Positions 18,932 through 47,888 of a stretch of DNA of 64,000 nucleotides are shown here, one piece after another; position 1 is the stretch's first letter, and every line of letters starts with the position of its first letter. Below the pieces are notes generated by a model. The model saw only the letters and a list, made by a program, of their open reading frames with translations, had not been told where the DNA came from and did no database searches. The position numbers and the translations under genes are program-made. This DNA is from Patescibacteria group bacterium (GTDB taxonomy: Bacteria; Patescibacteriota; Saccharimonadia; Saccharimonadales; VXPC01): the NCBI GenBank assembly GCA_039028495.1, contig JBCCHY010000001.1:3528-67527 (forward strand). Reading direction: 5' to 3'.

Positions 18932-18964
18932 GAAAAAACCTGCACAAATGGCAGGTTTTTTCTT
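18932..18964. terminator. Bidirectional rho-independent terminator hairpin (CCTGC-ACAAATG-GCAGG flanked by A-run and T-run)
   Basis: agaaaaaaCCTGCacaaatgGCAGGtttttt lies between the + ORF ending at 18884 and the 3' end of the minus-strand tRNA-Arg. Confidence 0.6.
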
Positions 18965-26998: not shown

Positions 26999-27071
26999 TT
27001 GGTGTTCTAGTTTTGATGTCAGTTCAGTATATCTTGGCCTGGCTCACTTCTAGCAAAGCTATACCTACAGG

Positions 27072-27938: not shown

Positions 27939-27994
27939 GGCTATATATTAGCATAAGTTTGCTTGTTTGTAAATAGTCTTATGCTTACTTTTCT

Positions 27995-28990: not shown

Positions 28991-29003
28991 TTAAAGGGGT
29001 GGG

Positions 29004-29870
29004 ATGAATCCAAATAACCAAGCACCAGGACAACCAGGACAGGCGGCCGCTCAAGCCCCGGTCAATCCTACCCTGGCTCCAGTCAACCCTGGAGCAATCA
29101 CTGGAGGCCCACAGCCTGGTCAGCCAAAACCTGCGGTATCCGTAAACCCCAATAGCACCCAAAACACCCTGCAGGTAGCAGAGGTCCGTGACGGTATCGT
29201 CATCATGGCCGATGGATCATTCCGGGCCGTTGTCATGTGTAAAGCCATCAACTTTGACCTCATGAGCCCTCAGGAAAAAGAGGGTGTAGAGTACGCCTAT
29301 CAGGGATTTCTAAATTCCCTCTACTTTGACATCCAGATATCTGTCAAATCTCGCCGCGTAGACGTCAAACCATATCTAGAGAAACTGACCAAAATCCGCC
29401 GCGAACAGGACAATATGCTGCTCGGTCTACTCATGGAGGACTACATATATTTCCTCGAGGATCTCACGCAGCAGACTAATATCATGGACAAAATGTTCTA
29501 TGTCACGATCCCATACTATGACACTAGCCTATCTGCCGCCAACATCTCTCGCAGTACCAAAAATATCTTTGCCAACATATTCTCATTCAATAAAACTCCG
29601 GACAAAGTAACAATAGACGAAAATGCTCTGGAGCAGGCTAAAACAGAGCTCCGTAACCGCGTCCAGGCAATCATGCAGGGATTACAGGCCTGTGGGGTCC
29701 AGAGCCTACCACTTGATACAGAGGAGCTGATCGAGCTCTACTACGATAGCTATAACCCAGATACTGCAACTAGGCAAAAGCTCAAAAACTTCGGTGGACT
29801 GTCTCAGGATGTTATTGGCAAGGGTGACGGTGTTGCCAGTACGGATCACTTGAATCGGAGTGTCCAGTAA
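29004..29870 (+). CDS. VirB4-like ATPase, N-terminal domain encoded as a separate ORF (Pro/Gln-rich leader plus TcpF/PrgJ-type N-domain)
   Basis: 288 aa; IVIMADGSFRAVVMCKAINFDLMSPQEKEGVEYAYQGFLNSLYFDIQISVKSRRVD matches the N-terminal domain of Gram-positive-type VirB4; stop TAA overlaps next ATG (TAATG). Confidence 0.5.
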   Translation: MNPNNQAPGQPGQAAAQAPVNPTLAPVNPGAITGGPQPGQPKPAVSVNPNSTQNTLQVAEVRDGIVIMADGSFRAVVMCKAINFDLMSPQEKEGVEYAYQGFLNSLYFDIQISVKSRRVDVKPYLEKLTKIRREQDNMLLGLLMEDYIYFLEDLTQQTNIMDKMFYVTIPYYDTSLSAANISRSTKNIFANIFSFNKTPDKVTIDENALEQAKTELRNRVQAIMQGLQACGVQSLPLDTEELIELYYDSYNPDTATRQKLKNFGGLSQDVIGKGDGVASTDHLNRSVQ

Positions 29871-31801: not shown

Positions 31802-31855
31802 TATCTACCTCTGTAAAAACTAGATACTCATGGTTAGCTCCTATATACTTACGTC

Positions 31856-34675
31856 ATGGGAATTTTCAGAGGTGACAACCAGGACGACGGCTACGAGCCT
31901 GACGCTCTTGCTCCCGATGCAGCAGAAACACCCGACAATACTCACCACACTGCTGAAGCCGAACAGGCTCAACTGGCAAACATACTGGCTGAAAACGGCG
32001 TGTATGATGCCGAGGATCAAGGGAGTTTTTATACGGGCCCCATTGCTGAGGCAGAGGATGAGGCTGCGGCAAGCACAGAGGAAACATCTAATGATGACCT
32101 AGAGAGCGGTCGCCTGGGTAGTTTTTACCAGGCAGCGGCCGCACGGACCTCTCCATCAAAGGGCAAAATATTCGGTGCACTGGGGTTGTTTGTTGCCCCT
32201 TATCTATTCCTGCTGCCATTACTATTCACACCCGGATTCGACCTAGAGCATATCAACCGCCTGACGACGGCTTTTAGGTTTGGGCATTTCCACACACAAC
32301 TCGGCAAACGAGTAAACCATCTAGCTAATTTCCAGATAGCCTACACTGCAGGGGGCGCCGACTATATAGAGGGTAGAAATATACCAAACTACGAGAGAAC
32401 CACCATGTTTCAGCGCATGGTTGGATCGGATGCAAAATCTGTCTGGGATAAATACGGAGACAGATTTACTCCTGTCTATGAACGCAGGGCAACGACCCTC
32501 GGACTTAGACGTCTAACGTCAATTACGGACGAAGTCACTGGCATAACCTATAGCACTAGACGAACCCCTGATCTGAGAGCGCTCGAGCAGCTCACTGCTA
32601 GCCTGGACCCAACCGATGCCCAAGTCGGAGTGCTCAGAACTAGGCCTGAGATATCCCTGTTTGCCCGAAATAACGGCGTGCCGTTCAGTAGGTTCGCACT
32701 TATAGTTAGCAAACTGAGAGAAAACCATCCTGACGTTGATACCAGACAAAAGGTGCGTGCAGAAGCAACTAAAGAAAGGCGCAATGCTACAAAACCAAGA
32801 GCAACCACCTTTCAAACCTTGGCGGGAGCTGGTCAGGAAGAGCTGAGCGATGGCTTCGTAGAGCAAATTGAATCGGGTGAATCACCTGGCAGAGCTCGCC
32901 AATGGCTCGCCGACAATCTCGAGTTTAATAAAAAGGTGCTCCTAAATACTGGTAGGCTCAGTGTAGCTGTTGGATTGGGTACAATTGCCTGCGTCTTCAG
33001 GGATGCTGCTGACACTATAGAGCAGGGTATCGTGGATAGAACACGAGGGCTCATGGTTCAGGCATCAGACACAGAGACAAATGTGTCTCAAAACAGACTT
33101 GGCTTAAACCCCGCCGAGATTGCAGCAGTGCTATCTAGCGATTTTGACGGACATGTACGCTCTGCAGCCTGGGCAGCATCAATGAAGGGCGTTCCTGTTG
33201 AAGAGACCGATCCAGATTTTAATTTTAGTAATCTATTCAACTTTAAAAATTATCTGGGAATATCAGTACGTACAGTCCTAGAGTTTGATAGGGCTATAGA
33301 CTTTGCTATCGACAACATACCTTCAAACCCTGCTGAGGTGTTAACAGACATTGGCGAAGCTATTCCTGTAGTGGGTAGTCCTTTTGGACTAATTGATAAT
33401 TCTTTTGATAGTCTCAAAAGAAGAGCTGCTGATGAAGGTTGCAAACATATCCTCAACCCGGGAGTGCAGATCGGCCTCACCGTAGTAGAACTCGTAGGTA
33501 CTGTAATTCTGACCTTCTTTACTGGACCGCTTGCAGGAACCGCTAAAGGAGGAGCTGGTGCGGTGATATCGCAGATTGCTAGATCAGTTGCCACCACCAG
33601 AGCAGCTGTTTCGTTAGGAGCGAGCATAGGGGCAGATTGGCTAATATATAACTGGATAATCCCGCGAGCGATAGAACAAAGTACAGGCATAAGCACCACC
33701 TACCTACCAGGTGAGGGCGCCAGGAATGTTGAAATACTGCTAGAAGGAAGTCGGCTCAATGCTGAGTCTGTTTCTCTCACGAGCGGGGGCACCATTACGA
33801 GCTCTGAGGTAGCGCTGGCGGCAAGCTTTGACCATATGCACAAATATCGAGAGTCTTTCACAGACCGCGGACTAGCCAGTAACCTCTTTGACCTAGACAA
33901 TCCATATTCAGGCGCCTCTAGTCTCGCCTCTAGCATACCTAGTAGTGTAAAAGACGGCGGTCAAAGCGTAGCTAGTCTGGCTTCATCAGTTTTTAGCGGA
34001 AGTGCGCTTATGAGCATATTTGGCGGTTCAGCATCAGCGCAGACCCAGAATAGAGACTTTAGAAACAACGGCCAGGCCTATATAGATCTCCTCTACGCAG
34101 GCAGTAGCTTTGGTGTTGGTTTTAACGAGCAGGAAATGACAGGCGAGGACCTAGACTTTGACCATGTAATAAACAGTGACTACGTCGAAGCAGATCTGCC
34201 GATACTGCTGGAGGAGTACGGCAAGTGTATAACCGTAAATTATCATGATCTAGTCCTCGTGGAGAGTGGCGTCATTAGGGATGATGAGCGTAAAAAAGAG
34301 TTAGGATATCCAGAAGAGTGCTACGATCGTGATGCACGTAGACTGCTGATCTACTGGTCCGACTGCAACACTGCCGTTAGCCTGCGCGAGGTAAGTCAGC
34401 TGCGCAGTGCCTTTTACTCGACCGAGTGTGCTCAGGATCTCGCGCCAGAGCTGCTGACCGCTGCACCGGTGAACGAGGAAGACTATCGCTATAATACTGC
34501 TCCCTACAGACTGCTGGCTGCCGCGCAGGACAAAGAGGCAAAGGAGCGGACCTTTACACAAAAAATCGGGGCTGAGCTGCGCGAGCTTCACCAAACAAGC
34601 CTTGACATGCGCGGGGACGTTTATGCAGCTACAGACGAGCCAGCCATCGCCTCGAGAAGGAGCACACTACTATGA
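31856..34675 (+). CDS. Large hypothetical membrane protein of the T4SS-like locus
   Basis: 939 aa; acidic N-terminus, TM hairpin near residue 100 (IFGALGLFVAPYLFLLPLLF), second hydrophobic block near residue 540-600; no catalytic motif. Confidence 0.5.
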   Translation: MGIFRGDNQDDGYEPDALAPDAAETPDNTHHTAEAEQAQLANILAENGVYDAEDQGSFYTGPIAEAEDEAAASTEETSNDDLESGRLGSFYQAAAARTSPSKGKIFGALGLFVAPYLFLLPLLFTPGFDLEHINRLTTAFRFGHFHTQLGKRVNHLANFQIAYTAGGADYIEGRNIPNYERTTMFQRMVGSDAKSVWDKYGDRFTPVYERRATTLGLRRLTSITDEVTGITYSTRRTPDLRALEQLTASLDPTDAQVGVLRTRPEISLFARNNGVPFSRFALIVSKLRENHPDVDTRQKVRAEATKERRNATKPRATTFQTLAGAGQEELSDGFVEQIESGESPGRARQWLADNLEFNKKVLLNTGRLSVAVGLGTIACVFRDAADTIEQGIVDRTRGLMVQASDTETNVSQNRLGLNPAEIAAVLSSDFDGHVRSAAWAASMKGVPVEETDPDFNFSNLFNFKNYLGISVRTVLEFDRAIDFAIDNIPSNPAEVLTDIGEAIPVVGSPFGLIDNSFDSLKRRAADEGCKHILNPGVQIGLTVVELVGTVILTFFTGPLAGTAKGGAGAVISQIARSVATTRAAVSLGASIGADWLIYNWIIPRAIEQSTGISTTYLPGEGARNVEILLEGSRLNAESVSLTSGGTITSSEVALAASFDHMHKYRESFTDRGLASNLFDLDNPYSGASSLASSIPSSVKDGGQSVASLASSVFSGSALMSIFGGSASAQTQNRDFRNNGQAYIDLLYAGSSFGVGFNEQEMTGEDLDFDHVINSDYVEADLPILLEEYGKCITVNYHDLVLVESGVIRDDERKKELGYPEECYDRDARRLLIYWSDCNTAVSLREVSQLRSAFYSTECAQDLAPELLTAAPVNEEDYRYNTAPYRLLAAAQDKEAKERTFTQKIGAELRELHQTSLDMRGDVYAATDEPAIASRRSTLL

Positions 34676-35961
34676 GCCTGATTACGAAAATTACCGAGAA
34701 GCTATGGGGGATGACTGCTACACTGCTAGTACTCTCGGTCATTCTGGCGCCGACCACGTCCGCACAGTCTACCTTCAACGAAGGGGCCGCTCACCTGTAC
34801 CCTTGGTTTGACTATCGTGACGACGGCTCTTTCCTCGCGAACTATTCGCCCGATAACTGTAGCGTAGCTTCAAATCTCGTCGGTGGCGACCATCAAGAAA
34901 AGGCCTTTAACTTCTTTATCGGCGAAGGGCGTGGACTCTCTGCACCCCAATCAGCCGGCATAGTCGGAAACTTAATGGTCGAGTCCTACGACGAGATCAA
35001 TCCAACTGCAGAGTATCCCGGAAGCGCCAGACCCTACGGCATAGCCCAGTGGACAGACAACGGTGGCAGAAGAGATAGAATGCTAACGTGGGTAAACTCA
35101 GCCCTAAAGGACCGAGGAATTGACACCGGAGACGATCCATATACATATTTCAGTGAAGCCAGTGCTCCGTCCAGTGATGAGTTAGAAATCTATTTTGAAG
35201 TGCAGCTAGAGTTCATTTGGTACGAAATGACCCAGGGCGACGAAACGCTAGCACTCACCGAACTACAAAAGACAAACTCTGCTATTGAAGCGGCAACAGC
35301 CTTTGAGAAGTACTACGAAAGGGCTAATGGTCAGAAGCTGGAAGATCGTATAGCTAACGCAGTCGGTATTCTAAATAAATATGGCTCTAACTACGGTGGA
35401 GATGTCAGCTCTGATAGCCGCATATGTGGACAGGCAGGTAGTGGTGAAATTGTTGGTGACTGGAGCTTACCACTGAGAAGAGCGCTGTTTGATCAGAATC
35501 AGTACTGGTTCAACAAACCCCACCATAACAAGAACGAAGCCGTAGACCTAGAGGCGTCTCCCGGTGAAGAGGTCTACTCTATGACTTCTGGAACGATTAT
35601 AAACGCAGGTACTGGTACAACGGATCTATGTGGCCTGGGTGTAGTCGTTCAGTCACCAGACGGGACTCAGTTTATCTACTGCCACGGTCTCGATGGTGGC
35701 TCCGTTGATGGGGCCCGCATTAATGATACCGTAAAGGCCGGTCAGCTAATCATGCATAACGGATCCACCGGAAACTACCCGCTGGACCATCCAGACCCAG
35801 ATCTGAGAGGTAAACCTTCCTCGTCAGGGCCTCATCTACATCTTGCGATTCAGACCCCTGATGGCGCCAGAAGATGCCCACAAAAACTGCTTGAATCAAT
35901 TTACAACAAGGCTCCGATCAGCCCCGAGTCGCTTGCCACGTCAGGATGTACCAAAGGATGA
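34672..35961 (+). CDS. Secreted peptidoglycan hydrolase: lysozyme-like (phage-tail-lysozyme type) domain plus M23 peptidase domain
   Basis: 429 aa; signal peptide; SAGIVGNLMVESYDEINP...YGIAQWTDNGGRRDRML (lysozyme-like); C-terminal HHNKNEAVDL ... GSTGNYPLD...GPHLHLAIQ (M23 HxxxD / HxH). Confidence 0.7.
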   Translation: MSLITKITEKLWGMTATLLVLSVILAPTTSAQSTFNEGAAHLYPWFDYRDDGSFLANYSPDNCSVASNLVGGDHQEKAFNFFIGEGRGLSAPQSAGIVGNLMVESYDEINPTAEYPGSARPYGIAQWTDNGGRRDRMLTWVNSALKDRGIDTGDDPYTYFSEASAPSSDELEIYFEVQLEFIWYEMTQGDETLALTELQKTNSAIEAATAFEKYYERANGQKLEDRIANAVGILNKYGSNYGGDVSSDSRICGQAGSGEIVGDWSLPLRRALFDQNQYWFNKPHHNKNEAVDLEASPGEEVYSMTSGTIINAGTGTTDLCGLGVVVQSPDGTQFIYCHGLDGGSVDGARINDTVKAGQLIMHNGSTGNYPLDHPDPDLRGKPSSSGPHLHLAIQTPDGARRCPQKLLESIYNKAPISPESLATSGCTKG

Positions 35962-37457: not shown

Positions 37458-37525
37458 ATTGACCATCTGACAGTTGTTGATAACACCTTTTATGGGTACA
37501 CGGAACTTGTTAAACTGTTAGGACT

Positions 37526-38491
37526 ATGTGGGAAGCATTAGTAGTAAAACCAATCGTCAATGTCCTAATAGCGATCTATGCGCTGATTCCTGGGCATAGT
37601 TTTGGGCTGGCTATAATTCTGTTCACCATTCTGGCCAGAGTCCTGCTTTATCCAATCGTAAAGAGGCAGCTCCACCACAGTAAAGCCCTACGAGAACTCC
37701 AGCCAGAGATTCAGGAGATCAAGAAAAAACACAAAGATGACCGTACTGCCCAAATGATGGCCATCAGCGCTCTGTACAAGCAACGAGAAGTCAGACCAGC
37801 AGCCGGTATAGGCTTCGCGCTGCTGCAGATACCCATTTTTCTTGCCCTCTATCAGGGAATAAACCGCATCATGAATGAGCCGCAAGAGATCATCGACACG
37901 TCATATCAATTCGTGCGTGATCTGCCCTGGATGCAGGATCTATCTGCAAACATTGCGCTGTTTGACACTGACTTTTTCGGTATTTTGGACCTGGGTCGTA
38001 GACCGTTTGATGACAGTACGCTCTATATTCCCGGCCTGATACTAGTATTTCTGACGGCCTATGTGCAGTTTATTTCTAGCAAGCAGATGCTCGCCAGCCA
38101 GGGCGAACGCAAGTCACTACGACAAATATTCAAAGACCAGGCAGATGGTAAAGAAGTAGACCAAGCAGAGGTCAGTGCAGCTACAGCAGGTGCCATGCCT
38201 TACATGATTCCCGGCATCATACTGCTCGTGTCCCTCGGGTTCGTGGCCGCACTACCGCTCTACTGGCTAACGAGCGGGGTTATCGGCTACTACCAGCAGC
38301 GTAGAGTTCTAAATATGGACGTCGACGAAGCTCTCGCTATTTCGGAGGAGAAGCAAAACAAACCAAAAAAGCTCAACGCCAAAGAGAAAAAGGCCGTAGG
38401 CTCAAGTGAACAAGAGGCGGCCAACAAAAAACCCAAAAAAATGAACGCCAAACAAAAACGCGAAGCCATGCGTAAGAAAGCAAAGAAATAG
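37526..38491 (+). CDS. yidC: Membrane protein insertase YidC (short Oxa1-like form) with Lys-rich C-tail
   Basis: 321 aa; YidC/Oxa1 core helices (LAIILFTILARVLLYPI...QMMAISALYKQREVRP...LLQIPIFLALY), C-terminal KKPKKLNAKEKK tail. Confidence 0.8.
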   Translation: MWEALVVKPIVNVLIAIYALIPGHSFGLAIILFTILARVLLYPIVKRQLHHSKALRELQPEIQEIKKKHKDDRTAQMMAISALYKQREVRPAAGIGFALLQIPIFLALYQGINRIMNEPQEIIDTSYQFVRDLPWMQDLSANIALFDTDFFGILDLGRRPFDDSTLYIPGLILVFLTAYVQFISSKQMLASQGERKSLRQIFKDQADGKEVDQAEVSAATAGAMPYMIPGIILLVSLGFVAALPLYWLTSGVIGYYQQRRVLNMDVDEALAISEEKQNKPKKLNAKEKKAVGSSEQEAANKKPKKMNAKQKREAMRKKAKK

Positions 38492-38501
38492 GGAGCGACC
38501 A

Positions 38502-38945
38502 GTGAAAGACGCAGCAGCATTCGCCCAGAAATATACCGAAGATCTGATGAGTTTTTTTGGTCTCAATGTTCCTGTTGAAACCGTAATCGAAAACGACATC
38601 ATCAAGCTCTCCGTTCCAGCCAACGATATCAGCGGCTCGCTGATAGGGACCAAAGCCGACACATTAATCGCATTTCAGAACATCATCAACTCAGCCCTAC
38701 GCTCTCAGGGCCATGATGTGCGCGCAAATCTCGACATCGCTGGCTACAAGCGTGATCGACAGGCTAAATTGGCGGAGAAAGCCAAGCACTGGGTAGAGCG
38801 GGCAGTCGAAAAGGGCGAGGATCTAGAGCTCAATCCTATGAATTCAGCCGACCGCCGAGTCGTCCACCAGGTTGCATCGGATATGGGTATTCAGACCGAG
38901 TCTATTGGTGAAGGCCGCGAGAGAAGAGTACTGCTCAAACCCTAA
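38502..38945 (+). CDS. jag: Jag/KhpB RNA-binding protein (KH plus R3H domains)
   Basis: 147 aa; immediately downstream of yidC (conserved synteny); R3H-like C-terminus RRVVHQVASDMGIQTESIGEG. Confidence 0.75.
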   Translation: MKDAAAFAQKYTEDLMSFFGLNVPVETVIENDIIKLSVPANDISGSLIGTKADTLIAFQNIINSALRSQGHDVRANLDIAGYKRDRQAKLAEKAKHWVERAVEKGEDLELNPMNSADRRVVHQVASDMGIQTESIGEGRERRVLLKP

Positions 38946-39016
38946 AACAACACTTTGCCTGAGATGTAAAGTCTTCAAAACTGGCTACACACTACTGTCA
39001 TCAGTATACTGATCGT

Positions 39017-40069
39017 ATGAAGATTCATTCAGTGAGAATGCAAAATGTGCGGGGGCACAATGATCTCAGCCTCGAGTTTGTTGATGGGGTTAATGTGCTG
39101 GTAGGTCCAAATGCCTGCGGTAAAACAACAGTGCTTGAGTCGCTGTCTATGGGTTGCACCGGCAAAAGCCCGGGTACTAAGCCGTCCGAAATGCTGCAAA
39201 ACGATGCCAGCTGGATGCGGATCGATATTTCTACAGACACTGATGCACGTATCGTCCGCTACCAGCCAGAAAAAAGCCAGACTAGAACAATAGAGATAGA
39301 CGGCAAACAACAGACCAGACTAAAGCACTCCCACATAGCGCCCATTGTCTGGTTTGACCCTGAGCAGCTACGCCTGCTACGCGGATCGCCTGCAAGAAGA
39401 CGAGAATACATGGACTACGTATTGTCCCAGCTGGACCCAAACTACAGTACACACCTGTCGCGTTACAGCAGGGCCCTGCGTCAACGTAACGCACTGCTCA
39501 AATCTGCCAACCCTACCAGAGATGCGCTCTTTGTCTGGAATGTGCGCCTCAGTGAGCATGGTGACTATATTCACAGCTCCAGGAAAAAACTAGTTGAAGA
39601 CATCACCGGTAGTATCGAGCAGAAATATCTCGACCTCTCGGGTACTACAAAAAGTATCTCGCCCATGTACCAGGCGCTGGAGGCAAAAGGCAGCTACTCA
39701 GAAAACCTCCTTAAGAGTCTCGAGAGCAGCTATGACCGAGATCGAGCCATCGGCCATACTACAGCAGGCCCGCACAGAGACGATCTATTATTCGGGGACG
39801 ATTCTGGTCAGGCACTCGGTCTGTCGGCATCTAGGGGCGAAGTCCGCACATTGGTTCTGGCTCTTAAGCTACTCGAGGTGGAGCTACTAGAGAGTGCCTT
39901 CAGTAGCAGTCCCTTACTGCTATTTGACGATGTATTCTCAGAGCTAGACGGTGCCCGCAGACAAGCATTCGTATCCGCACTATCCCATCTACAAACCATC
40001 ATAACTACTACAGATGCAGACATAGTGACCAAAGATTTCGCACGTAAAGCCAATATCCTCGCCATCTAG
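39017..40069 (+). CDS. recF: DNA replication and repair protein RecF
   Basis: 350 aa; Walker A GPNACGKTT, signature/Walker B LLLFDDVFSELD. Confidence 0.85.
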   Translation: MKIHSVRMQNVRGHNDLSLEFVDGVNVLVGPNACGKTTVLESLSMGCTGKSPGTKPSEMLQNDASWMRIDISTDTDARIVRYQPEKSQTRTIEIDGKQQTRLKHSHIAPIVWFDPEQLRLLRGSPARRREYMDYVLSQLDPNYSTHLSRYSRALRQRNALLKSANPTRDALFVWNVRLSEHGDYIHSSRKKLVEDITGSIEQKYLDLSGTTKSISPMYQALEAKGSYSENLLKSLESSYDRDRAIGHTTAGPHRDDLLFGDDSGQALGLSASRGEVRTLVLALKLLEVELLESAFSSSPLLLFDDVFSELDGARRQAFVSALSHLQTIITTTDADIVTKDFARKANILAI

Positions 40070-40078
40070 CACCCTAAA

Positions 40079-40128
40079 CCAAAAAGGTGAAAAAACGAGA
40101 CGATCGTCTCGTTTTTTCACCTTTTTGG
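40079..40128. repeat. 50-bp perfect palindrome (copy 1) between convergent recF and rnpA; probable bidirectional terminator
   Basis: CCAAAAAGGTGAAAAAACGAGACGATCGTCTCGTTTTTTCACCTTTTTGG is its own reverse complement; 44-bp core identical to 44807-44850. Confidence 0.8.
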
Positions 40129-40138
40129 TTTTAGCTGT

Positions 40139-40480
40139 TTAGGTAGACTTCAGGTCTTCTATAGCTGGCAGGAGCGATCTCTCTAGCTCTGTATGATCAA
40201 CCGTAGATACACGCTCATCGTGCACTATTATCGCTATATCTAGATTGGGCATACCGTCGATGTTTTTTCGTATAAGTTCATATATGCGTCTACGTATGCG
40301 GTTGCGAGTAACCGCGCTCTTTGCAACCTTTTTACTGACAATTACAGCTAGGCGGTAGTTCTTTCGTTTTGGATTCTGGACGTATTTAACCGTGGCATAC
40401 TTTGTGCGTGTGCCTTTGCCGTGCCTAAACAGATACTTTAGGCTGCCATGCCCATGAAAACGAAATGTGTTGCTTATCAT
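40139..40480 (-). CDS. rnpA: Ribonuclease P protein component
   Basis: 113 aa; basic RnpA pattern (RLAVIVSKKVAKSAVTRNRIRRRIYEL). Confidence 0.8.
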   Translation of the reverse strand: MISNTFRFHGHGSLKYLFRHGKGTRTKYATVKYVQNPKRKNYRLAVIVSKKVAKSAVTRNRIRRRIYELIRKNIDGMPNLDIAIIVHDERVSTVDHTELERSLLPAIEDLKST

Positions 40481-40557
40481 TAGACCATAGTATATCCCGA
40501 AATGATGGTAGCTGGTTACGCTTGTCTTTTAAATCTTATGTGTTGTACATTTACTGT

Positions 40558-41433
40558 ATGAATACCCTTCTAATCGAAAGATGCTTGAATAGAGCAACCG
40601 TGGACGGACATAACGCGGCTGTTGCTAACAGACCACTGACAGGTATTGAGCTAATGATGCTTCAACCATCACAGGTCCCAGAAGAAAGACTTGCTGCTGT
40701 ACGAGACGCCATATCGAGAACACCAAGACATATTGCTGGTATTGTTCTTGGTAATCCTTTTTATTTTGATGTTATGAAGATAGACGGTGTAGATACGAAT
40801 ACGTCTGCGTGTCGACCACCCCTAATTGATGTTCTGACTAGATCTAGTGACGGGTGGCAAGGACACTACTGCCAACCAAAAGCAATCGAAAACCTAGCAA
40901 GAAGCGCCGGCTATACCCCCGACTCTCACACCAATATAGTCGTTGCCGGCCATACAACCGCGACGTGCAGTGCGGTTATCGCTCTGGCGCGCAGGACATC
41001 ACAAACGCATCTTGTCAGTCTTGCCAGAGACCCTTTCAGAGAACTAAACAGGTTTTCTCGAAAAACCGGACGTGAAGCTAAGCTGCATCACGGAAAAAGG
41101 GCATCTGCCGAGTTAGCGCGCACGCTCACCATGCCTGCTGTAGTCGTAATTGAAACCTTTGATAAACCAGACTCCGAAGACTATGCCGAAAGGGTGCTTC
41201 CAGACGAATCGCTTCGTGATCTACCGGATGGCTCAATAGTGATTGATGTTGGCTCTCATTCAAAGAGACGGGCCTTGACCGAGAGAGTAGAAGAATTTGA
41301 CCATCTATCTATTTGCGGAGGCGTAGAGTTTACAGCTAGGCTAATTCTAGCTCAGGAGAAAACAATTCACGGCGGCAAAATCCCCTTTATGCCCATCCTA
41401 GAAGCCATAACAAACGACAAGAGTGAGTACTAG
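40558..41433 (+). CDS. Hypothetical protein lying between rnpA and rpmH (ORF track start 40465; ATG 40558 more plausible)
   Basis: ~291 aa from MNTLLIERC; weak resemblance to cysteine-hydrolase-like motif (NIVVAGHTTATCSAVIALAR); function unknown. Confidence 0.4.
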   Translation: MNTLLIERCLNRATVDGHNAAVANRPLTGIELMMLQPSQVPEERLAAVRDAISRTPRHIAGIVLGNPFYFDVMKIDGVDTNTSACRPPLIDVLTRSSDGWQGHYCQPKAIENLARSAGYTPDSHTNIVVAGHTTATCSAVIALARRTSQTHLVSLARDPFRELNRFSRKTGREAKLHHGKRASAELARTLTMPAVVVIETFDKPDSEDYAERVLPDESLRDLPDGSIVIDVGSHSKRRALTERVEEFDHLSICGGVEFTARLILAQEKTIHGGKIPFMPILEAITNDKSEY

Positions 41434-41540
41434 CGAGCAAAGATTTATGTATACGTGTCTTTAAGTAATTACTTGCTCATTACTTAAAGAATCCGCTTTC
41501 GGTGGGAGGATCACCTGAGAAATCTATGATTTCCCGGCGT

Positions 41541-41568
41541 CTAAGGAGGGAGGTGCCCTCCCTCCTTA
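41541..41568. terminator. Perfect 12-bp-stem hairpin (TAAGGAGGGAGG-TGCC-CTCCCTCCTTA) immediately 3' of the rpmH stop
   Basis: Inverted repeat seen directly in sequence between convergent ORF 40558-41433 and rpmH; no clean U-run, so terminator function is uncertain. Confidence 0.4.
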
Positions 41569-41706
41569 CTAGGCAGAGATTTTTTTGCGGCCCTTTAAGC
41601 GGCGGCGCTTGAGCACTTTTTTACCAGCGCGGTTCTTCATCCGAGCAAAGAAGCCGTGATTTCTGGCTCTTTTACGCTTTTTGGGCTGGAATGTCCTTTT
41701 TGGCAT
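41569..41706 (-). CDS. rpmH: 50S ribosomal protein L34 (not in ORF track because <60 aa)
   Basis: Reverse-complement translation [45 protein letters not shown]; classic L34. Confidence 0.8.
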
Positions 41707-41768
41707 GATTTTCTTTCAATATTTGATTCGGGCGATAACTATACCAGAGGTGTAACAGATTGACAAAT

Positions 41769-44186
41769 CTACCCTAGATGCAGGTAGTAGATATGTCTGC
41801 CGGATGAAATCATTTTGTGAACCGAGATTATCCAGCGCTGGCTGTCACCTGCCGGCTCAACCAGCCCTAGTCCCTGGTATTCAGCTGAATCTTCTGTAAC
41901 CCGATACACAGGTAACAGGGGCGGATCTATAGCGACCGGGATGAGGCGTGCAGCCTGAGCCTGACTCTCTGTGAGAAATACTTTTGGCTCTAACGGCTGT
42001 GGACTTGTCGGTACCCTGACCGTCCCTCCAGGGCCAATCAGCACGACCTCTACATCGTCTAGTGTTAAACCCTCTACCTCAATCCCTGCAGATTCTGCTG
42101 GCAAGCTAACGATGTGCTGGCCATCCTGCTCAATTTGTAGCCAATCAACATCGACTAGGCCGTCCCACTCGATACGTAGCCCATCTTTTGTTTCTATCGA
42201 AGTGATGTCGGCACTAGGCGGTAACACATCAGTAACTGTCGAATCCGTACCAACCTCGACAACTATCCGCTCCCGCGATGCTGTCCCGTCATGTGATGTA
42301 GCCTGAGCCGTAATCTCGTACTGACCCTCGTTCGCTGCAATAAACACGACTGAATCTGATTCTATTTCATACACGCCATCGCCGCTCAGATCCCATTCAA
42401 TCCTGTCAATAAAACTATCTGGATCAGTTGCATCAACCAGTAGCTCTAGCTGTTGCCCCGGCACTACGACATACTCGCCTGAACTACTGGTATGGATAGG
42501 GGCCAGCCTGATATCAATCTCTGGGGCATTAATGCTACCAATTAGCACATCGTATAGCTCATGATTGCCCCGATATTTAGGATATATCTCGCTAACATGA
42601 CCGCAGGCTCCGTCAGCGATCGTCTCATGAAACTTACGGGCCTGAGCTAGATGATACGGGGCCAGAACATCTGAACTATCTAGTAGTGTCGGATAAAACA
42701 CTGGAATGATACAGACACCCTTGTCATTAGCGGCTTGCAGCACATCCTGGATGCTTACTCCCGTGGTGTTCTCGGGGCTTGTGCTGTAGGAGTTTGTGAA
42801 ATAGACGATCGTATTGCTGCTCAGCCCTAACCAGTCGGCGTTATTGACAGTGTCAAGCAGGACACCTAGGTTGCTGTCTGGCAGATCACGCCCACCACCA
42901 GAGAAAGACCTCAGTGTGTATTGGCCAACATAGGCCTGAATAGGGCTGTAGTCAGTCAAACGTTGCCTGTAGACATCACCGGATAGATCAAGCGGCATCT
43001 CCCAGCTGGGTATGGACTCATCTCCTGATGAATACTCGTTATAGACCACCAAACCTGCTCTAGCGAGCGGCCTAGACTCAGTGATTTTTCTAAAGCTTTC
43101 GTTCAGCGTAAAACGAGAGCCGCCGAGCAGCACTTTGTCCATATTGGCCGTTGTATCGAACATCAACATAACATCGCCAGCAAAGCCGACATCTCTGCCG
43201 TTTATAGGCACACTGCTACGACGCAAATCCGGATCGGCTCCACTTAAATCTGCTAGGCGGGACTGAGTGCTTAGCACCATTTCCACCGCTGATTCGGCGA
43301 TATACTCGTCTTTATATTTATTGACGTGGGCATCGGCTGGATTTTTCTTGCTAGTGTAGGGACTAACCCCATTACAGATAATATCCGCCCGGTCACACCA
43401 ACTAGTAAATTTGCCCAGCAGCACATCCGGCACATATGGGTCGCGAGCACCCAGCGACGGAAACCCAAGGCCCGATGTCTTGCCACGAGCATAGGGTTGT
43501 TTGGGGTTGCCACCGCCGAAACCTGTGTACAGATTAGCTCTCGGGTCTCCATATAGGGCAACATGAGCGAGCCGTTCGATCAGCGGGTCCAGACCATCCT
43601 CATGCATCTGCCAAAGTGCCGTTCCGACAACATCTGCTCCTTGAGAATACCCACCTAGATATATCAGCTGATTGGGGCAGCGCTGCATATGCTCCTCGAG
43701 GAATCCAGCTAACTCTATCGCCCCATTGTATACAGATCCGCCGTATTCGCTCTGGCCTGAACCACGGTGCACAAATGCTCCGATACCCTCAGGAGTCGGT
43801 ATGGTTACGAACGGCAATCTATCAGTGACCACGCCAATTGCCTGGTATCCGTGCTGGCTATACTTGTGAGGGAAATTCTGCAGCGTCAACCGATCAATCC
43901 GTAAATTTTCATGTCCATTCGCATGAATCTGCTCCTCAAGTTTTTCGAAGAACCTAAAAGACTCGGGTTCAAAATCAAAAAGACTATCCTGATCAAAGTT
44001 ATTGGGATTGCCCGCGCCACCATTCTGTCCAGACCCTCGTATAAATAAGGCCAGAACATCCTCACAAGGTCTCTCAGACACGATGTTGCTATCTAGTATT
44101 GTTTGCTCCACAGCCTCGGTAGCGCGATAGCTTAATGGACCCAATACAAGCACGCAGAAACCCACCAGCACTAAGCTATATCTCAT
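41769..44186 (-). CDS. Secreted multidomain protein: cutinase-like serine esterase domain plus C-terminal PKD/Ig-like domains
   Basis: 805 aa; signal peptide; GYSQGA nucleophile elbow (cutinase-type GxSxG); C-terminal beta-rich region IEWDLSGDGVYEIESDSVVFIAANEGQYEITAQATSHDG (PKD-like). Confidence 0.5.
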   Translation of the reverse strand: MRYSLVLVGFCVLVLGPLSYRATEAVEQTILDSNIVSERPCEDVLALFIRGSGQNGGAGNPNNFDQDSLFDFEPESFRFFEKLEEQIHANGHENLRIDRLTLQNFPHKYSQHGYQAIGVVTDRLPFVTIPTPEGIGAFVHRGSGQSEYGGSVYNGAIELAGFLEEHMQRCPNQLIYLGGYSQGADVVGTALWQMHEDGLDPLIERLAHVALYGDPRANLYTGFGGGNPKQPYARGKTSGLGFPSLGARDPYVPDVLLGKFTSWCDRADIICNGVSPYTSKKNPADAHVNKYKDEYIAESAVEMVLSTQSRLADLSGADPDLRRSSVPINGRDVGFAGDVMLMFDTTANMDKVLLGGSRFTLNESFRKITESRPLARAGLVVYNEYSSGDESIPSWEMPLDLSGDVYRQRLTDYSPIQAYVGQYTLRSFSGGGRDLPDSNLGVLLDTVNNADWLGLSSNTIVYFTNSYSTSPENTTGVSIQDVLQAANDKGVCIIPVFYPTLLDSSDVLAPYHLAQARKFHETIADGACGHVSEIYPKYRGNHELYDVLIGSINAPEIDIRLAPIHTSSSGEYVVVPGQQLELLVDATDPDSFIDRIEWDLSGDGVYEIESDSVVFIAANEGQYEITAQATSHDGTASRERIVVEVGTDSTVTDVLPPSADITSIETKDGLRIEWDGLVDVDWLQIEQDGQHIVSLPAESAGIEVEGLTLDDVEVVLIGPGGTVRVPTSPQPLEPKVFLTESQAQAARLIPVAIDPPLLPVYRVTEDSAEYQGLGLVEPAGDSQRWIISVHKMISSGRHIYYLHLG

Positions 44187-44237
44187 GCTATCTATACTAG
44201 CTAGAAACCACCATCATATGATTTAGGTTTGTGTTAA

Positions 44238-44750
44238 TTAATCCCTGGTGTTCTTAGAGCTTCTAATGGAGAGTTTGTAGTGGCTGTCATCATAAAAAGA
44301 GACGGACAGGTCTAGTTCATATCTACCAGATGTTGTGGTAATCCTACAAGTAGTTTGAGCACCTATATCGTCACAGCCGTTGGTAGTGCTGTCCACTACA
44401 TTGCTATATTGATTTTGCTGAGAAAAAGCACTCATATAGTCTTCTGGCTTACCTACTGTTGAAACGGACACTTTATATGTCTCACGATAAAAAGGGCACT
44501 CGCCGCCTCCAATGAAGGGACAGAATATACCGAAGCGTCCGCGCTCTTCACTGGTGCTGATTAGCTCCCAGTCAGCTGGTATTTCAAAGCTCTGGAGCTT
44601 GTTGCGGACTAGCCAGAACACCGGCGCACGGGTACCTAGTGTGTGGTTGTAAATAGTCGCGAACACGAACCAGGCTAGCAGAATCAGCGGTAGCCTCTTC
44701 AACCATTCTCTTGTCGTCCATTTCAGAGGGTTAGAGATCCATGTTTTCAT
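44238..44750 (-). CDS. Hypothetical membrane-anchored protein
   Basis: 170 aa; one TM (LPLILLAWFVFATIY), Cys-containing ectodomain. Confidence 0.4.
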   Translation of the reverse strand: MKTWISNPLKWTTREWLKRLPLILLAWFVFATIYNHTLGTRAPVFWLVRNKLQSFEIPADWELISTSEERGRFGIFCPFIGGGECPFYRETYKVSVSTVGKPEDYMSAFSQQNQYSNVVDSTTNGCDDIGAQTTCRITTTSGRYELDLSVSFYDDSHYKLSIRSSKNTRD

Positions 44751-44806
44751 ACCCCAATACTACCAAAGATAGTCGCTACAACATGAATCTATAATCAAAC
44801 CATAAC

Positions 44807-44850
44807 AAAAGGTGAAAAAACGAGACGATCGTCTCGTTTTTTCACCTTTT
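44807..44850. repeat. 44-bp perfect palindrome (copy 2), identical to the core of 40079-40128, upstream of dnaA
   Basis: AAAAGGTGAAAAAACGAGACGATCGTCTCGTTTTTTCACCTTTT. Confidence 0.8.
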
Positions 44851-44949
44851 TTAGTGATTAGCACAGGTATCTTTCTTCCGCAATAGAATCTTGGGGATAG
44901 TTGTAGAATTTGCGTCGGCTTTTGCCCTGAAAATGACGAGTTTATACAC

Positions 44950-45075
44950 ATTTGTAGCCAAGTAGTCCACAGATTTACCTCTGTTAATTATTCTGTGTGG
45001 AAAAAAGCTAAAGTGTTTTGTGTTTTTTAGGTAAATAAACATTGACGGACTTTTTCCTGTGGAAAAGTCTGAAAT
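44950..45075. promoter_or_regulatory. DnaA-box-like motifs upstream of dnaA (candidate oriC part / dnaA autoregulation)
   Basis: AGTCCACAG (~44961), TGTGTGGAAAA (~44994), CTGTGGAAAAG (~45058): TGTGGA/TCCACA cores of the TTATCCACA consensus. Confidence 0.45.
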
Positions 45076-45121
45076 CAAGGTGTATATTTATGGCTAGATT
45101 ACGAGGTAAAAGGGGTAGTAA

Positions 45122-46507
45122 GTGGAAGCAGAAAACCTATGGCAGTCTGTGCTCGGAGAAATCGAGCTGAGCGTATCCAGAGCTAGCTATGTGACTTGGT
45201 TTAAAAACACTCGTCTGCTCCGCCGTAGCGAAGAAGAAATCGTCGTAGGTGTCCCAAATATATTCGCTAAGCAGCAGTTAGAAATGAAGTTTTCTGACCT
45301 GATAACAGACATTTTACGAAAGAACGGCGCTGACCCAGAAGTAGTTTCATTCAAAATACATACCCCGAAAAAAACTATGACTCACGCAAAGACCGAGGAC
45401 GAAGAGACAGTCCAAGTATCCTTTCCCGAAGAGTCCTCTCAGAGCAAGCCCACTAAGAAACCTCCTGCCATGACAGCCGATGTGTCACATGACTACCGCC
45501 AGGGACTAAATAGTAAATACACTTTCGAAAATTTTATATCTGGATCAGGCAATGAGCTAGCCTATGCTGCCTGCCAAGCAGTTGCTAACAAGCCTGGTGA
45601 GAAATATAACCCACTATTCATATACGGTGGAGTGGGTATAGGTAAAACCCATCTCATCCAGGCTGTCGGCAATGAGGTGCTGAAGAATAACCCAAAGGCC
45701 AAGGTTGTCTACGTCACTATCGAGCAGTTCGTGCAGGAATTTACTGACTCTATCAGACACAAAAAAGCTGGGGCATTCGCCCAACACTACCGTAATGTTG
45801 ATGTGTTAATAGTCGACGACATACAGTTCATCGCGAGCAAAGAAAAAACTCAGGAGGAGTTCTTCCATACCTTTAACGTCCTACATCAGGCTAACAAGCA
45901 GGTGATCATCAGCAGCGACAAGCCTCCCCACGCCATCCCAACACTCGAAGAGCGTCTCAGGAGCCGTTTCCAGATGGGAATGAGTATCGACATGCAAACA
46001 CCAGACTTTGAGACACGCTGCGCAATTCTGCAGCTCAAAAGTGACGACGTCGATATCAATATAGATCGTGAAAGCATCGAATTCCTGGCAAATAGTTTCC
46101 CGAGTAACATTCGTGAACTGGAAGGTGCTCTCAATCAACTAGTCGCGTTCTGTGAAATGAGGCAAATAGACGCTAATGTAGACATAGCCAAGCAGGTCTT
46201 TGCAAAGCTAGCCAGCCGCCCTAAACACATCTCGCCAAAACAAGTCGTCGAAAAAGTGGCTCGTTACTACCAAATCACTGTTGAGCAGATTGTCGGACCA
46301 AAACGAGACAAAGACATCGTTCTACCTCGCCAAGTAGCCATGTATCTACTGCGTAGTGAGCTGCACCTGAGTTTCCCTAGAATCGCCCAGGAGCTAGGCC
46401 GCAAGGACCACACCACGGCGATCCATTCAGTTGAAAAGATCGAACGAGAGTCAAAAGTAGACCTCATACTAGCTCAGCAGCTAGGGGAGATAAAGGATAC
46501 TCTATGA
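45122..46507 (+). CDS. dnaA: Chromosomal replication initiator protein DnaA
   Basis: 461 aa; AAA+ Walker A GGVGIGKTHL, Walker B VLIVDDIQF, C-terminal DNA-binding domain (LPRQVAMYLLRSELHLSFPRIAQELGRKDHTTAIH). Confidence 0.9.
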   Translation: MEAENLWQSVLGEIELSVSRASYVTWFKNTRLLRRSEEEIVVGVPNIFAKQQLEMKFSDLITDILRKNGADPEVVSFKIHTPKKTMTHAKTEDEETVQVSFPEESSQSKPTKKPPAMTADVSHDYRQGLNSKYTFENFISGSGNELAYAACQAVANKPGEKYNPLFIYGGVGIGKTHLIQAVGNEVLKNNPKAKVVYVTIEQFVQEFTDSIRHKKAGAFAQHYRNVDVLIVDDIQFIASKEKTQEEFFHTFNVLHQANKQVIISSDKPPHAIPTLEERLRSRFQMGMSIDMQTPDFETRCAILQLKSDDVDINIDRESIEFLANSFPSNIRELEGALNQLVAFCEMRQIDANVDIAKQVFAKLASRPKHISPKQVVEKVARYYQITVEQIVGPKRDKDIVLPRQVAMYLLRSELHLSFPRIAQELGRKDHTTAIHSVEKIERESKVDLILAQQLGEIKDTL

Positions 46508-46793
46508 TAAGCAACCAACAATATAGCGCTACGAATAGTCCACACACACAACATGGCGCGTCAGTAACTGAGGACAACCGTGCCCCTGCTTGTGCAGAAC
46601 TCTCAACGTACCCACATATTCAAAGAACAAGTGGTCTTGTAGGTCAAATAGACCCACAGCTTTTCCAGAACCGTACACTGATACTTACCCAGGCTTTTGC
46701 TCAAACAGAATTGGTTGATTTAACAGATATCATTGATGTTTTTTGCACAGAATCCACAGGACCTAAAACTATTACTACAAAGGAGATAAATAC
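46508..46793. promoter_or_regulatory. dnaA-dnaN intergenic region with several DnaA-box-like motifs and AT-rich stretch (candidate oriC)
   Basis: TAGTCCACAC, TACCCACATA, GACCCACAG, GAATCCACAG plus AT-rich TTTAACAGATATCATTGATGTTTTTTG; the 97-aa ORF called here is probably spurious. Confidence 0.45.
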
Positions 46794-47888
46794 ATGAATA
46801 TACAAGTTACTCAGGAAAACTTGTCACGTGCACTCAGCAATGTCTCGCGAGTAGCTACAAGCTCACGTGGTGCACTACCTATACTCTCGAACATTCTCAT
46901 CAAAACGACAGACGGAAGACTAACAATCTCTGCGACTAATCTAGAGATAGCAATAACAGAAGTTATCGGTGCAAAGGTCATGAGGGAGGGGTCTATTACA
47001 CTGCCCGCCAAACTTATTCAGGAATATGTCAGCTCTCTACCAAAAGGTACTGTCACGATGGAGCTCGAGGATCATAAACTCAAACTATCCTGCGGTGATT
47101 ACACATCGACGATCAACGGAACACTCGCAGATGACTACCCAGTGATTCCACAGGCAGGAGATAAACACATCTGGAAGATCAACTCAGCAGTACTCAAGAA
47201 AGCTCTGTCGCAGGTAGTATTTGCGGCTAGTTCAGATGATGCGCGTCCTGTACTAACGGGTGTATTGCTACACACTGTAGGTGAGGACGTCTTCTTCGCT
47301 GCTACAGACAGCTATAGGCTCTCAGAAAAGCGTGTTGGTACAAGCAAGAGTGAGATCAGTCTTCTTATCCCCGGTAGCTCGCTCAATGACCTACAGCGCA
47401 TCCTGAGTGATGATGAGGCAGATGTGTTTGTATACGGCGAAGGTGACCAGGTGGCCTTCAAAGTAGGTGATATAGAGCTGGTATCCAGACTGATAGAGGG
47501 TACGTATCCTGACTACCGCAAGCTACTACCTGCCAAATTTGAGAGCTCTGCCGAACTAGAGCGTAGTGAGTACGTGAGTGCAACAAAACTAGCTAGTCTC
47601 TTTGCCCGCGAAAGCGCTGGTGCAATCACTGTTAGCGTCAAACCTGACACAAAGTCTCTCAACATTCAGTCATCTGCCTCTCAGCTAGGTGAAAACTCTA
47701 CGTCACTCAGCGCCAGTGTAGAGGGTGATGGAGTGATATCTCTGAACTCTAGATTCTTACTAGACGGATTACAATCTCTAGAAGGTGACACGGTACAGAT
47801 GTCACTTAATGGTAAGCTCGATCCGTGTGTACTGCGGGCGCCTGAGCATGATGACTATCTACACATCATAATGCCCCTCAAGAGTTAA
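46794..47888 (+). CDS. dnaN: DNA polymerase III beta sliding clamp
   Basis: 364 aa; MNIQVTQENLSRALSNVSRVA...LPILSNILIKTTDGRLTISATNLEIAI typical DnaN N-domain. Confidence 0.88.
   Translation: MNIQVTQENLSRALSNVSRVATSSRGALPILSNILIKTTDGRLTISATNLEIAITEVIGAKVMREGSITLPAKLIQEYVSSLPKGTVTMELEDHKLKLSCGDYTSTINGTLADDYPVIPQAGDKHIWKINSAVLKKALSQVVFAASSDDARPVLTGVLLHTVGEDVFFAATDSYRLSEKRVGTSKSEISLLIPGSSLNDLQRILSDDEADVFVYGEGDQVAFKVGDIELVSRLIEGTYPDYRKLLPAKFESSAELERSEYVSATKLASLFARESAGAITVSVKPDTKSLNIQSSASQLGENSTSLSASVEGDGVISLNSRFLLDGLQSLEGDTVQMSLNGKLDPCVLRAPEHDDYLHIIMPLKS

Follow-up and report, generated by a model that had tools for sequence, protein, structure and literature searches.

A duplicated perfect palindrome with a terminator-like build at two intergenic sites near the replication origin of a Saccharibacteria genome

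Short, identical extragenic palindromes lodged in intergenic spacers, where they may provide a hairpin at the 3' end of a transcript, include REP/BIME sequences, the Correia elements of Neisseria and the Rickettsia palindromic elements. REP sequences are expected in tens to hundreds of copies and are associated with a RAYT (Y1 transposase) gene. Bidirectional intrinsic terminators offer a second point of comparison, as an A-run, a GC-rich core and a T-run have been reported as their build in published terminator surveys (PMC1852404). Identical sequences also recur in terminator-like hairpins as paired uptake sequences, namely the DUS of Neisseria and the USS of Pasteurellaceae (PMC1852404). 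Finally, the gene order rpmH-rnpA-yidC-jag / dnaA-dnaN-recF around the origin has been reshaped by inversions in the clade considered here, whose members range from the canonical arrangement (L010) to those of L006, L005, L012 and the genome under study.

The element described below occurs in a MAG of uncultured Saccharibacteria, in a 64-kb stretch of DNA that was analysed as a whole and is hereafter called the window. It is an exact direct repeat of 45 nt present twice (40082-40126 and 44807-44851), 4.7 kb apart and next to the replication origin. The earlier note on this DNA had reported an identical 44-bp palindrome at two loci, which holds, the shared identity in fact reaching 45 nt; its coordinates for the second locus (44807-44850) are correct, those for the first (40083-40126) are one base off, since the 44-mer matches exactly at 40082-40125 and 44807-44850 only, and the surrounding palindrome, given as 50 bp, measures 56 nt. 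In the window, no additional copy of the 44-mer was found at up to three mismatches, shuffled sequences giving an expectation of 0, and at the same tolerance the 22-nt half-site matched only the four arms of the two palindromes. The element is built in two nested layers, an inner CGAGAC-GATC-GTCTCG hairpin flanked by A6 and T6 lying inside a second layer made up of GGTG/CACC and A/T runs. Copy 1 accounts for 56 of the 69 nt separating the stop codons of recF (40069) and rnpA (40139). Copy 2, a perfect palindrome over 44 nt (44807-44850) whose arms extend further imperfectly, lies 57 nt upstream of the start of a 170-aa ORF and 271 nt upstream of that of dnaA. The AAACCA on its left flank recurs as the outer arms of copy 1 in its full 56-nt form; apart from this match, which involves a 4-nt indel, no significant homology links the flanks of the two copies, and no direct repeat of the kind left by a MITE-type target-site duplication surrounds either of them.

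The element has no REP-type head and no target-site duplication, in which it departs from the REP/BIME, Correia and Rickettsia families. Only two copies, and no degenerate ones, are seen in the 64 kb, and "element family" here rests on n = 2 copies within the 64-kb window. No RAYT, transposase or recombinase was detected among the 40 window ORFs scanned against Pfam, and no Rfam family was found. Searches of GTDB genomes, JGI metagenomes, IMG/VR, phages and plasmids returned neither the element nor a related sequence. The central 22-mer had a single match among GTDB genomes and three among JGI metagenomes, each of them GC-rich, unrelated and differently flanked, and none in IMG/VR; the 69-nt recF/rnpA junction matched no phage or plasmid. 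Uptake sequences share with the element the recurrence of an identical sequence in terminator-like hairpins, but they are 9-12-mers present in hundreds to thousands of copies, also singly, whereas the half-site was found in the 64 kb only inside the two palindromes; a DUS/USS-type pair was rejected on the distribution of the half-site, at up to three mismatches, in four arms only. A protelomerase target or hairpin telomere was also discarded, as each copy is flanked by different genes (recF and rnpA; the 170-aa gene and dnaA) and no protelomerase gene lies in the window.

The gene content reported earlier (recF, rnpA, rpmH, cutinase, dnaA) agrees with Pfam (Table 1), in which the 322-aa and 170-aa ORFs have no family match. 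The hairpin directly downstream of rpmH is likely the terminator of that gene. Upstream of dnaA, the part of the spacer that is conserved is probably the oriC and dnaA control region. It carries DnaA-box-like sites at 44942-44950, 44996-45004 and 45058-45066 and a promoter-like site at 45060-45088; the cumulative GC-skew minimum falls at ~46-48 kb. The ~1-kb stretch between rnpA and rpmH is, on comparison of the sequences, a lineage-specific insertion. Its most likely ORF (40558-41433, 291 aa) precedes a hairpin at 41458-41490, and its only homologues are its own sequence in Logan and a single protein with 26% identity. It was considered as an enzyme acting on the palindrome and set aside, as it matches no Pfam, NCBIfam or PDB entry and its AlphaFold model is unusable (pLDDT 39.7). 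Its motifs VLGNPF and DGGW-G-NT may recall shikimate dehydrogenase.

Table 1. Features of the origin-proximal region, in window coordinates.
Feature	Coordinates	Strand	Basis or remark
Inverted block relative to L005	37458-40069	+	68-nt former rnpA-yidC spacer (37458-37525), yidC, jag, recF
yidC	37526-38491	+	Pfam
jag/R3H	38502-38945	+	Pfam
recF	39017-40069	+	Pfam
Palindrome copy 1	40076-40131	none	perfect 56-nt palindrome; core 40082-40126 common with copy 2
rnpA (RNase P protein, 113 aa)	40139-40480	-	Pfam PF00825, E = 1.9e-19
~1-kb insertion between rnpA and rpmH	40481-41540	+	only about 100-470 nt at the same place in L005 and L006
GC-rich hairpin directly downstream of rpmH	41542-41568	-	-27.9 kcal/mol
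rpmH	41569-41706	-	Pfam
rpmH, cutinase-domain protein and 170-aa ORF	41569-44750	-	order and orientation relative to dnaA as in palindrome-free relatives
Cutinase-domain secreted protein	41769-44186	-	Pfam
Palindrome copy 2	44807-44851	none	45 nt identical to copy 1
Conserved spacer part upstream of dnaA	44893-45121	+	DnaA-box-like sites, promoter-like site
dnaA	45122-46507	+	Pfam
dnaN	46794-47888	+	Pfam

The gene order near the origin is indeed non-canonical. Comparison with the closest retrievable relatives, L005 (DnaA 84% identical) and L006 (DnaA 75% identical), relocates the rearrangement. The 4.7-kb segment bracketed by the copies had been taken as the rearranged part. In both relatives, rnpA-rpmH-cutinase-170aa diverges from dnaA and keeps the order and orientation of the window, and neither locus carries the palindrome; gene order without the repeats is what had been named beforehand as refuting that claim. 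Neither the palindrome, its half-site nor any hairpin with arms of at least 18 nt was found in L005, L006-9 or L010-12, and the 16-mer of the element is missing from the loci of every relative. By blastn, window positions 37508-40041 match L005 5929-3410 in reverse, and collinearity holds for 34943-34985 and 40214-47888; the 68-nt spacer at 37458-37525 aligns over its full length with the reverse complement of the L005 rnpA-yidC spacer, a score equalled by none of 2000 shuffles (0/2000). As read from these alignments, the inversion specific to the window is that of yidC-jag-recF, outside the bracket between the copies. The outgroups L006 and L010, with jag-yidC-rnpA on one strand, establish the ancestral state. 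The rnpA gene, of the same length as its L005 counterpart (113 aa) and collinear with it, now converges with recF, and yidC-jag no longer comes after it.

The convergent recF/rnpA junction created by this inversion consists almost entirely of copy 1. The ancestral spacers at this site measured 11 nt (501aa|recF) and 68 nt, and the whole 68 nt moved with yidC; thus, at most ~13 nt of the 69-nt junction are not palindrome. The other inversion junction (37458-37525) carries neither a palindrome nor an insertion, and the 8-nt CACCTTTT found there belongs to the spacer homologous to that of L005. At the site of copy 2, the 170-aa start and the conserved TAGAAT block are separated by 165 nt in the window against 121 nt in L005, an excess of 44-45 nt, and subtracting 45 nt leaves 120 nt. 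The corresponding spacers of L005 and L006 are devoid of the sequence. Copy 2 is a clean insertion of 45 nt within the divergent 170aa-dnaA spacer, in its non-conserved portion and adjoining the conserved DnaA-box region. An origin in situ was rejected because neither the homologous spacers nor the breakpoint regions of L005 and L006 resemble the element (p = 0.48-0.68; about 0.5 for the spacers).

Folded as RNA, the element is very stable. The minimum free energy of copy 1 is -44.9 kcal/mol on the + strand and -46.4 kcal/mol on the - strand (z ~ -9.3), that of copy 2 is -31/-35 kcal/mol, and z over both copies and both strands ranges from -7 to -9.3 against shuffles. Copy 1 scored as terminator-like, with T-rich tails on both strands; its stem is followed by the U-tracts TTTTTGGTTTT (+) and TTTTTGGTTTA (-), that of copy 2 by TTTTTT (+) and only TTTTG (-). 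In these respects the element resembles bidirectional intrinsic terminators, with a stable stem-loop lying between an A-run and a T-run, such that each strand presents a hairpin and a U-tract, and with copy 1 between convergent 3' ends, the classic place for such a terminator. It differs from them in its stem of 20-28 bp, against 11-16 bp in the other hairpins of the window, in its perfectly symmetric, nested two-layer structure and in its identical duplication between divergent promoters. A second convergent junction in the window has a hairpin (18929-18965) of the same A-run, GC-core and T-run style; the other convergent pairs, with spacers of 2, -4, 9 and 22 nt, have none. A terminator is therefore not obligatory at such sites, and any selection for one at recF/rnpA is hypothetical. 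The bidirectional terminator proposed in the earlier note thus fits the hairpin stability, the A- and T-runs and the convergent setting of copy 1; it leaves copy 2 unexplained, because this copy is flanked by divergent genes (starts at 44750 and 45122) and no annotated transcript ends there.

We favor, with a probability of about 0.55, a reading in which the element is a small inserted palindrome, specific to this lineage and built like a bidirectional intrinsic terminator; copy 1 would probably work as a terminator, and copy 2 would be idle or insulating. In this scenario, the element would have entered two intergenic spacers close to the origin by a putative copy-and-insert process. Its sequence is the same at both sites, and the homologous sites of all retrievable relatives lack it. 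The yidC-jag-recF inversion would have generated the convergent recF/rnpA junction now occupied nearly entirely by copy 1, which most likely ends the transcripts of both genes; this activity is a prediction in line with the stability of the hairpin and its U-tracts. Because both divergent promoters, that of the 170-aa gene and that of dnaA/oriC, lie downstream of copy 2, this copy would be a neutral passenger or would insulate oriC from stray transcription.

The position of copy 1, exactly at one inversion junction and making up nearly all of its spacer, also suits another origin, in which one copy was templated on the other, in either direction, during the replication or repair event that inverted yidC-jag-recF. 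The palindrome would then be junction filler, a scar of template switching at a hairpin-forming sequence and neither a mobile element nor a selected terminator. The perfect identity and proximity of the copies, their restriction to the lineage with the inversion and the AAACCA shared by the left flank of copy 2 and the outer arms of the 56-nt copy 1 are all in line with this account, which we nonetheless consider unlikely: the other junction has no insertion, and a source would still be needed for copy 2, which lacks a local precursor and is itself inserted when compared with L005. The copies could alternatively act on the DNA between them. Identity over 45 nt, in either orientation, suffices for rare RecA-type exchange. 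Because the repeat is its own reverse complement, homologous recombination could flip the 4.7-kb segment, and may have shaped or may still be switching the local gene order; deletion of the segment would lose the essential rnpA and rpmH. The flipped isomer, with which the k=31 Logan contigs are compatible, would bring both copies to gene 3' ends (recF facing copy 1 and rnpA facing copy 2) and give the otherwise idle copy 2 a role. Such an inversion, also put forward in the earlier note, is conceivable in principle but without support: the genes of the segment keep their order and orientation with respect to dnaA in the repeat-free L005 and L006, and the rearrangement specific to the window lies outside the bracket, with one breakpoint lacking a copy, which makes this reading distinctly unlikely. 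The broader proposition that the palindrome is either a hairpin sequence copied into breaks, as a scar of the yidC-jag-recF inversion, or an active pair flipping the rnpA-rpmH-cutinase segment, usable as a terminator in both orientations, appears rather unlikely.

Both copies also lie within 5 kb of the conserved DnaA-box region and the GC-skew minimum, as might a protein-binding or structural site associated with the origin, such as a centromere-like site, an operator common to recF/rnpA and 170aa/dnaA, or an oriC cruciform. The absence of the element from the same spacers in all relatives, where the DnaA-box block is conserved, the location of copy 1 at a gene 3' end 5 kb from oriC, and a perfect symmetry of 44-56 nt that far exceeds that of typical operators render this role highly improbable. 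Nor is the element parS-like: scanning for 16-bp TGTTNCACGTGAAACA-type ParB sites gave only two matches with three mismatches, elsewhere in the window and at chance level, and the GTGAAA/TTTCAC half-sites of the element are everted, 24 nt apart. Lastly, the source is a MAG and palindromes give false joins in de Bruijn graphs, by which the repeat or the gene order could be unreal. A Logan assembly of run SRR22824298 (k=31), independent of the MAG, provides three contigs that are 100% identical to the window and end inside the palindromes: L015 (34412-40105), L013 (40102-41560, which also stops at the centre of the hairpin downstream of rpmH) and L014 (44836-41832). They reproduce three of the four flank-palindrome joints, the pairing of flanks across the 45-nt repeat lying beyond k=31 contigs. 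The left inversion junction, a unique sequence, is reproduced by L015, which excludes a misassembly behind the inversion, and the flanks of each copy are different genes and not mirror images. An artefact is therefore barely credible.

For annotation, the rearranged block of this region is to be taken as yidC-jag-recF and not as the segment between the copies, and for assembly, it should be kept in mind that k=31 contigs break at every palindrome. If the favored reading is true, this locus would show, as a small and ordinary case, how a terminator-like palindrome can spread into another intergenic spacer of a reduced CPR genome. The finding would gain weight if the copies had exchanged flanks next to oriC, or if more copies existed at junctions, as hairpin repeats would then be tied to the repeated origin-proximal inversions of the clade. 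In the window, the most recent of these inversions has a palindromic insertion at one junction and is not attributable to the repeat. Should the scar or the flipping reading nevertheless be true, a tiny palindromic repeat would have a causal link to the unusual fluidity of the origin region in this Saccharibacteria clade.

Two copies of a palindromic repeat lie 4.7 kb apart near the replication origin. The 44-mer reported in the earlier note is indeed present at two places in the 64-kb window, 40082-40125 (copy 1, one base left of the start first assigned, 40083) and 44807-44850 (copy 2); no further match with ≤3 mismatches was found in the window, and none in 100 shuffles. Exact identity between the copies extends to 45 nt (40082-40126 and 44807-44851). 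Copy 1 is embedded in a perfect palindrome of 56 nt (40076-40131), not the 50 nt initially described; that of copy 2 is 44 nt, its arms extending imperfectly beyond. The inner stem (CGAGAC/GTCTCG), with a GATC loop and A6/T6 on its flanks, is surrounded by an outer layer (GGTG/CACC) with its own A/T runs. Outside this core only AAACCA on the left is common to both copies, with a 4-nt indel, and no target-site duplication was found around either. These are by far the longest hairpins in the window (arms of 24-28 bp versus 11-16 bp in eight others), with predicted RNA folding energies of -44.9 (+) and -46.4 (-) kcal/mol for copy 1 and -31.3 and -35.1 kcal/mol for copy 2 (z-scores -7 to -9.3).

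Coordinates of genes around the repeat and of matching Logan contigs
Feature	Window positions	Strand	Basis or remark
yidC	37526-38491	+	Pfam
jag/R3H	38502-38945	+	Pfam
recF	39017-40069	+	Pfam
rnpA	40139-40480	-	Pfam
322-aa ORF	40465-41433	+	family match: none
rpmH	41569-41706	-	Pfam
cutinase-domain protein, 805 aa	41769-44186	-	Pfam
170-aa ORF	44238-44750	-	family match: none
dnaA	45122-46507	+	Pfam
dnaN	46794-47888	+	Pfam
L015	34412-40105		Logan contig
L013	40102-41560		Logan contig; other end at centre of rpmH hairpin 41542-41568
L014	44836-41832		Logan contig

The dnaA neighbourhood is the origin region, since the cumulative GC skew is lowest at ~46-48 kb and the right-hand 230 bp of the dnaA upstream spacer, with DnaA-box-like sites, are kept among relatives. 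A 97-aa ORF occupies the dnaA-dnaN spacer (46504-46797), within which no DnaA box was matched at ≤1 mismatch; counterparts are called in the related loci L005 (88 aa) and L006 (81 aa), and since it is only 31% identical to the former it may be non-coding origin DNA. The closest DnaA proteins are from Saccharibacteria (84%, 75%, 74% and 72% identity). At L010 (DnaA 72%) the canonical order is found, with jag, yidC, rnpA and rpmH divergent from dnaA-dnaN-recF; L006 (75%) adds cutinase and 168-aa genes between rpmH and dnaA; at L012 (72%) rnpA-yidC-jag lies downstream of dnaN; and L005 (84%) has a forward 501-aa gene, then recF, jag, yidC, rnpA, rpmH, cutinase and 170-aa genes in reverse, then dnaA-dnaN. 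Gene order around the origin is thus prone to rearrangement in this clade. The rpmH-rnpA-yidC-jag and dnaA-dnaN-recF blocks take five arrangements among the window and these four loci (DnaA 72-84%), with breakpoints repeatedly at the same block boundaries, and the cutinase and 170-aa genes wedged between rpmH and dnaA are common to the window, L005 and L006. Directly adjoining the origin block is a type IV secretion-like cluster (24152-35961; PrgI-family 27995-28990, TraG P-loop ATPase 29870-31801, phage-lysozyme/M23 peptidase 34672-35961); the corresponding genes of L006 and L010 are on the opposite side, after recF.

By blastn, window positions 40214-47888 are collinear with L005 6055-12742, as is the left flank at 34943-34985, and between them 37508-40041 aligns to L005 5929-3410 in the opposite orientation. 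The rearrangement specific to the window is thus the inversion of yidC-jag-recF, a block that does not belong to the segment bracketed by the repeats. As L006 and L010 both keep yidC-jag downstream of rnpA on one strand, the window arrangement is the derived state. The bracketed segment itself, previously considered rearranged, holds rnpA, rpmH, cutinase and 170-aa genes divergent from dnaA in conserved order and orientation, and genomes without the repeat show the same order.

At the left junction, 68 nt of spacer separate yidC from the stop codon of a 503-aa gene (37457). This spacer aligns over its full length, in reverse complement, to the L005 spacer between rnpA and yidC, also of 68 nt (0/2000 shuffles score equally), which places one breakpoint essentially at the stop codon of rnpA. 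The second falls within the 11-nt spacer of a convergent 501-aa gene/recF pair of ancestral type, as in L005. Lengths and C-termini of RnpA and RecF are retained relative to L005, as is the C-terminal IL of the 503-aa protein (501 aa in L005); thus, a plain inversion would leave ~11-13 nt between recF and rnpA. The spacer is 69 nt (6 nt, the 56-nt palindrome and 7 nt), and copy 1 is extra sequence in this new junction. No repeat copy was found at the left junction.

Copy 2 sits in the spacer from which the 170-aa ORF (start 44750) and dnaA (start 45122) diverge, within a 140-bp part that shows no conservation across the window, L005 and L006. The 170-aa start is 165 nt from the conserved GTTGTAGAATTTGC block in the window and 121 nt in L005; without the 45-nt repeat the window distance becomes 120 nt, and a conserved TGGTAG(T/A)AT motif, located immediately before the 170-aa start, falls into alignment. 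Copy 2 is thus a clean insertion of 45 nt that lies upstream of the two divergent promoters. It does not resemble the homologous L005 and L006 spacers (p ~0.5) and so did not form in place. The motif, a putative extended -10 element of the 170-aa gene, stands 6-9 nt upstream of its ATG (window 44751-44765; L005 9661-9678), which suggests a leaderless or near-leaderless mRNA; the L006 counterpart has instead TTGCCA-18-TAAAAT with a GGGGG leader.

Normally adjacent rnpA and rpmH are separated by a ~1-kb lineage-specific insertion (40481-41540) that carries a 291-aa orphan ORF (40558-41433, +) followed by a hairpin (41458-41490). Among 5.8 + 1.8 billion proteins its only homologues were the same ORF in Logan SRR22824298 and a single protein 26% identical to it; Pfam, NCBIfam and PDB gave no match, and its AlphaFold pLDDT is 39.7. 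Farther away, a 586-aa ORF with an FG-GAP-like repeat (57762-59522, -) contains a perfect 80-nt direct repeat (58270-58349 and 58429-58508, 159 nt apart), and adjacent paralogous genes (53569-55218, 549 aa; 55235-56905, 556 aa) with common repeat families ~71-73% identical at a spacing of 1687 nt sit in a glycosyltransferase/ABC-transporter surface-polysaccharide region.

The repeat is built like a bidirectional intrinsic terminator, and the same A-tail/T-tail pairing has been described in terminator surveys (PMC1852404). A hairpin of the same style (18929-18965) lies between a + strand gene and a - strand tRNA. The earlier proposal of bidirectional termination agrees with the stable hairpins, the A/T runs and the convergent site of copy 1, whose position makes termination of recF and rnpA transcripts likely, but copy 2 coincides with no annotated transcript end and cannot be accounted for as a terminator of annotated genes. 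Nor need copy 1 have been selected as a terminator, because the genome tolerates convergent genes without one: in four hairpin-free pairs of the window the spacer measures 2 (3101/3104), -4 (14125/14128), 22 (47888/47911) and 9 nt (56905/56915), and the ancestral 501-aa gene/recF pair has 11 nt.

Since a foreign unit at both sites is the common denominator, we favour, with a probability of roughly 0.55, a small palindromic insertion element serving also as terminator at one site. A discrete 45-56-nt palindromic unit would have entered two spacers, both in the lineage with the inversion and the 1-kb orphan-gene insertion. Filler templated from one site and copied to the other during the rearrangement would also yield identical copies, one of them in a new junction, and is a distinctly weaker candidate. 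Recombination between the copies, as first proposed, is weaker still: they bracket a segment, but the inverted block lies outside it, and the proposed causal link does not hold. An origin-associated binding site would suit two copies less than 5 kb from the DnaA-box region and is improbable; no parS was found in the window, and the repeat was rejected as such. It was likewise rejected as a telomere-resolvase site and as an uptake-sequence pair, a half-site scan (≤3 mismatches) having matched only the four arms of the two copies in the window.

An assembly artefact is the least credible reading. The same organism, reached via the orphan ORF, is present in the Logan assembly of run SRR22824298, whose contigs L013, L014 and L015 match the window at 100% identity, stop 30 nt (k-1) into the palindromes, and reproduce three of the four flank-palindrome joints as well as the inversion junction on the left. 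k-mers ≤45 nt are identical for both orientations of the bracketed segment, so these k=31 contigs cannot phase the two copies. Their ends fall in each long palindrome and at the rpmH hairpin centre; short palindromes thus break up k=31 assemblies and can in turn be located from contig ends.

The 16-nt half-core is absent from all relatives' loci, which also contain no hairpin with arms ≥18 bp. The central 22-mer was matched once among 185,579 GTDB species genomes and three times in JGI metagenomes, with every match rejected as a true copy given its unrelated, GC-rich context, and not at all in IMG/VR; the 69-nt junction had no match in phage or plasmid collections, and an Rfam scan of the window returned three tRNAs and nothing else. 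The repeat, with two copies in 64 kb, resembles REP/MITE-type extragenic palindromes, but has no target-site duplication or head motif, and no transposase, recombinase or RAYT family among 40 scanned ORFs of the window. It fits best in the broad class of terminator-like palindromic repeats, as a new member with two copies to date.
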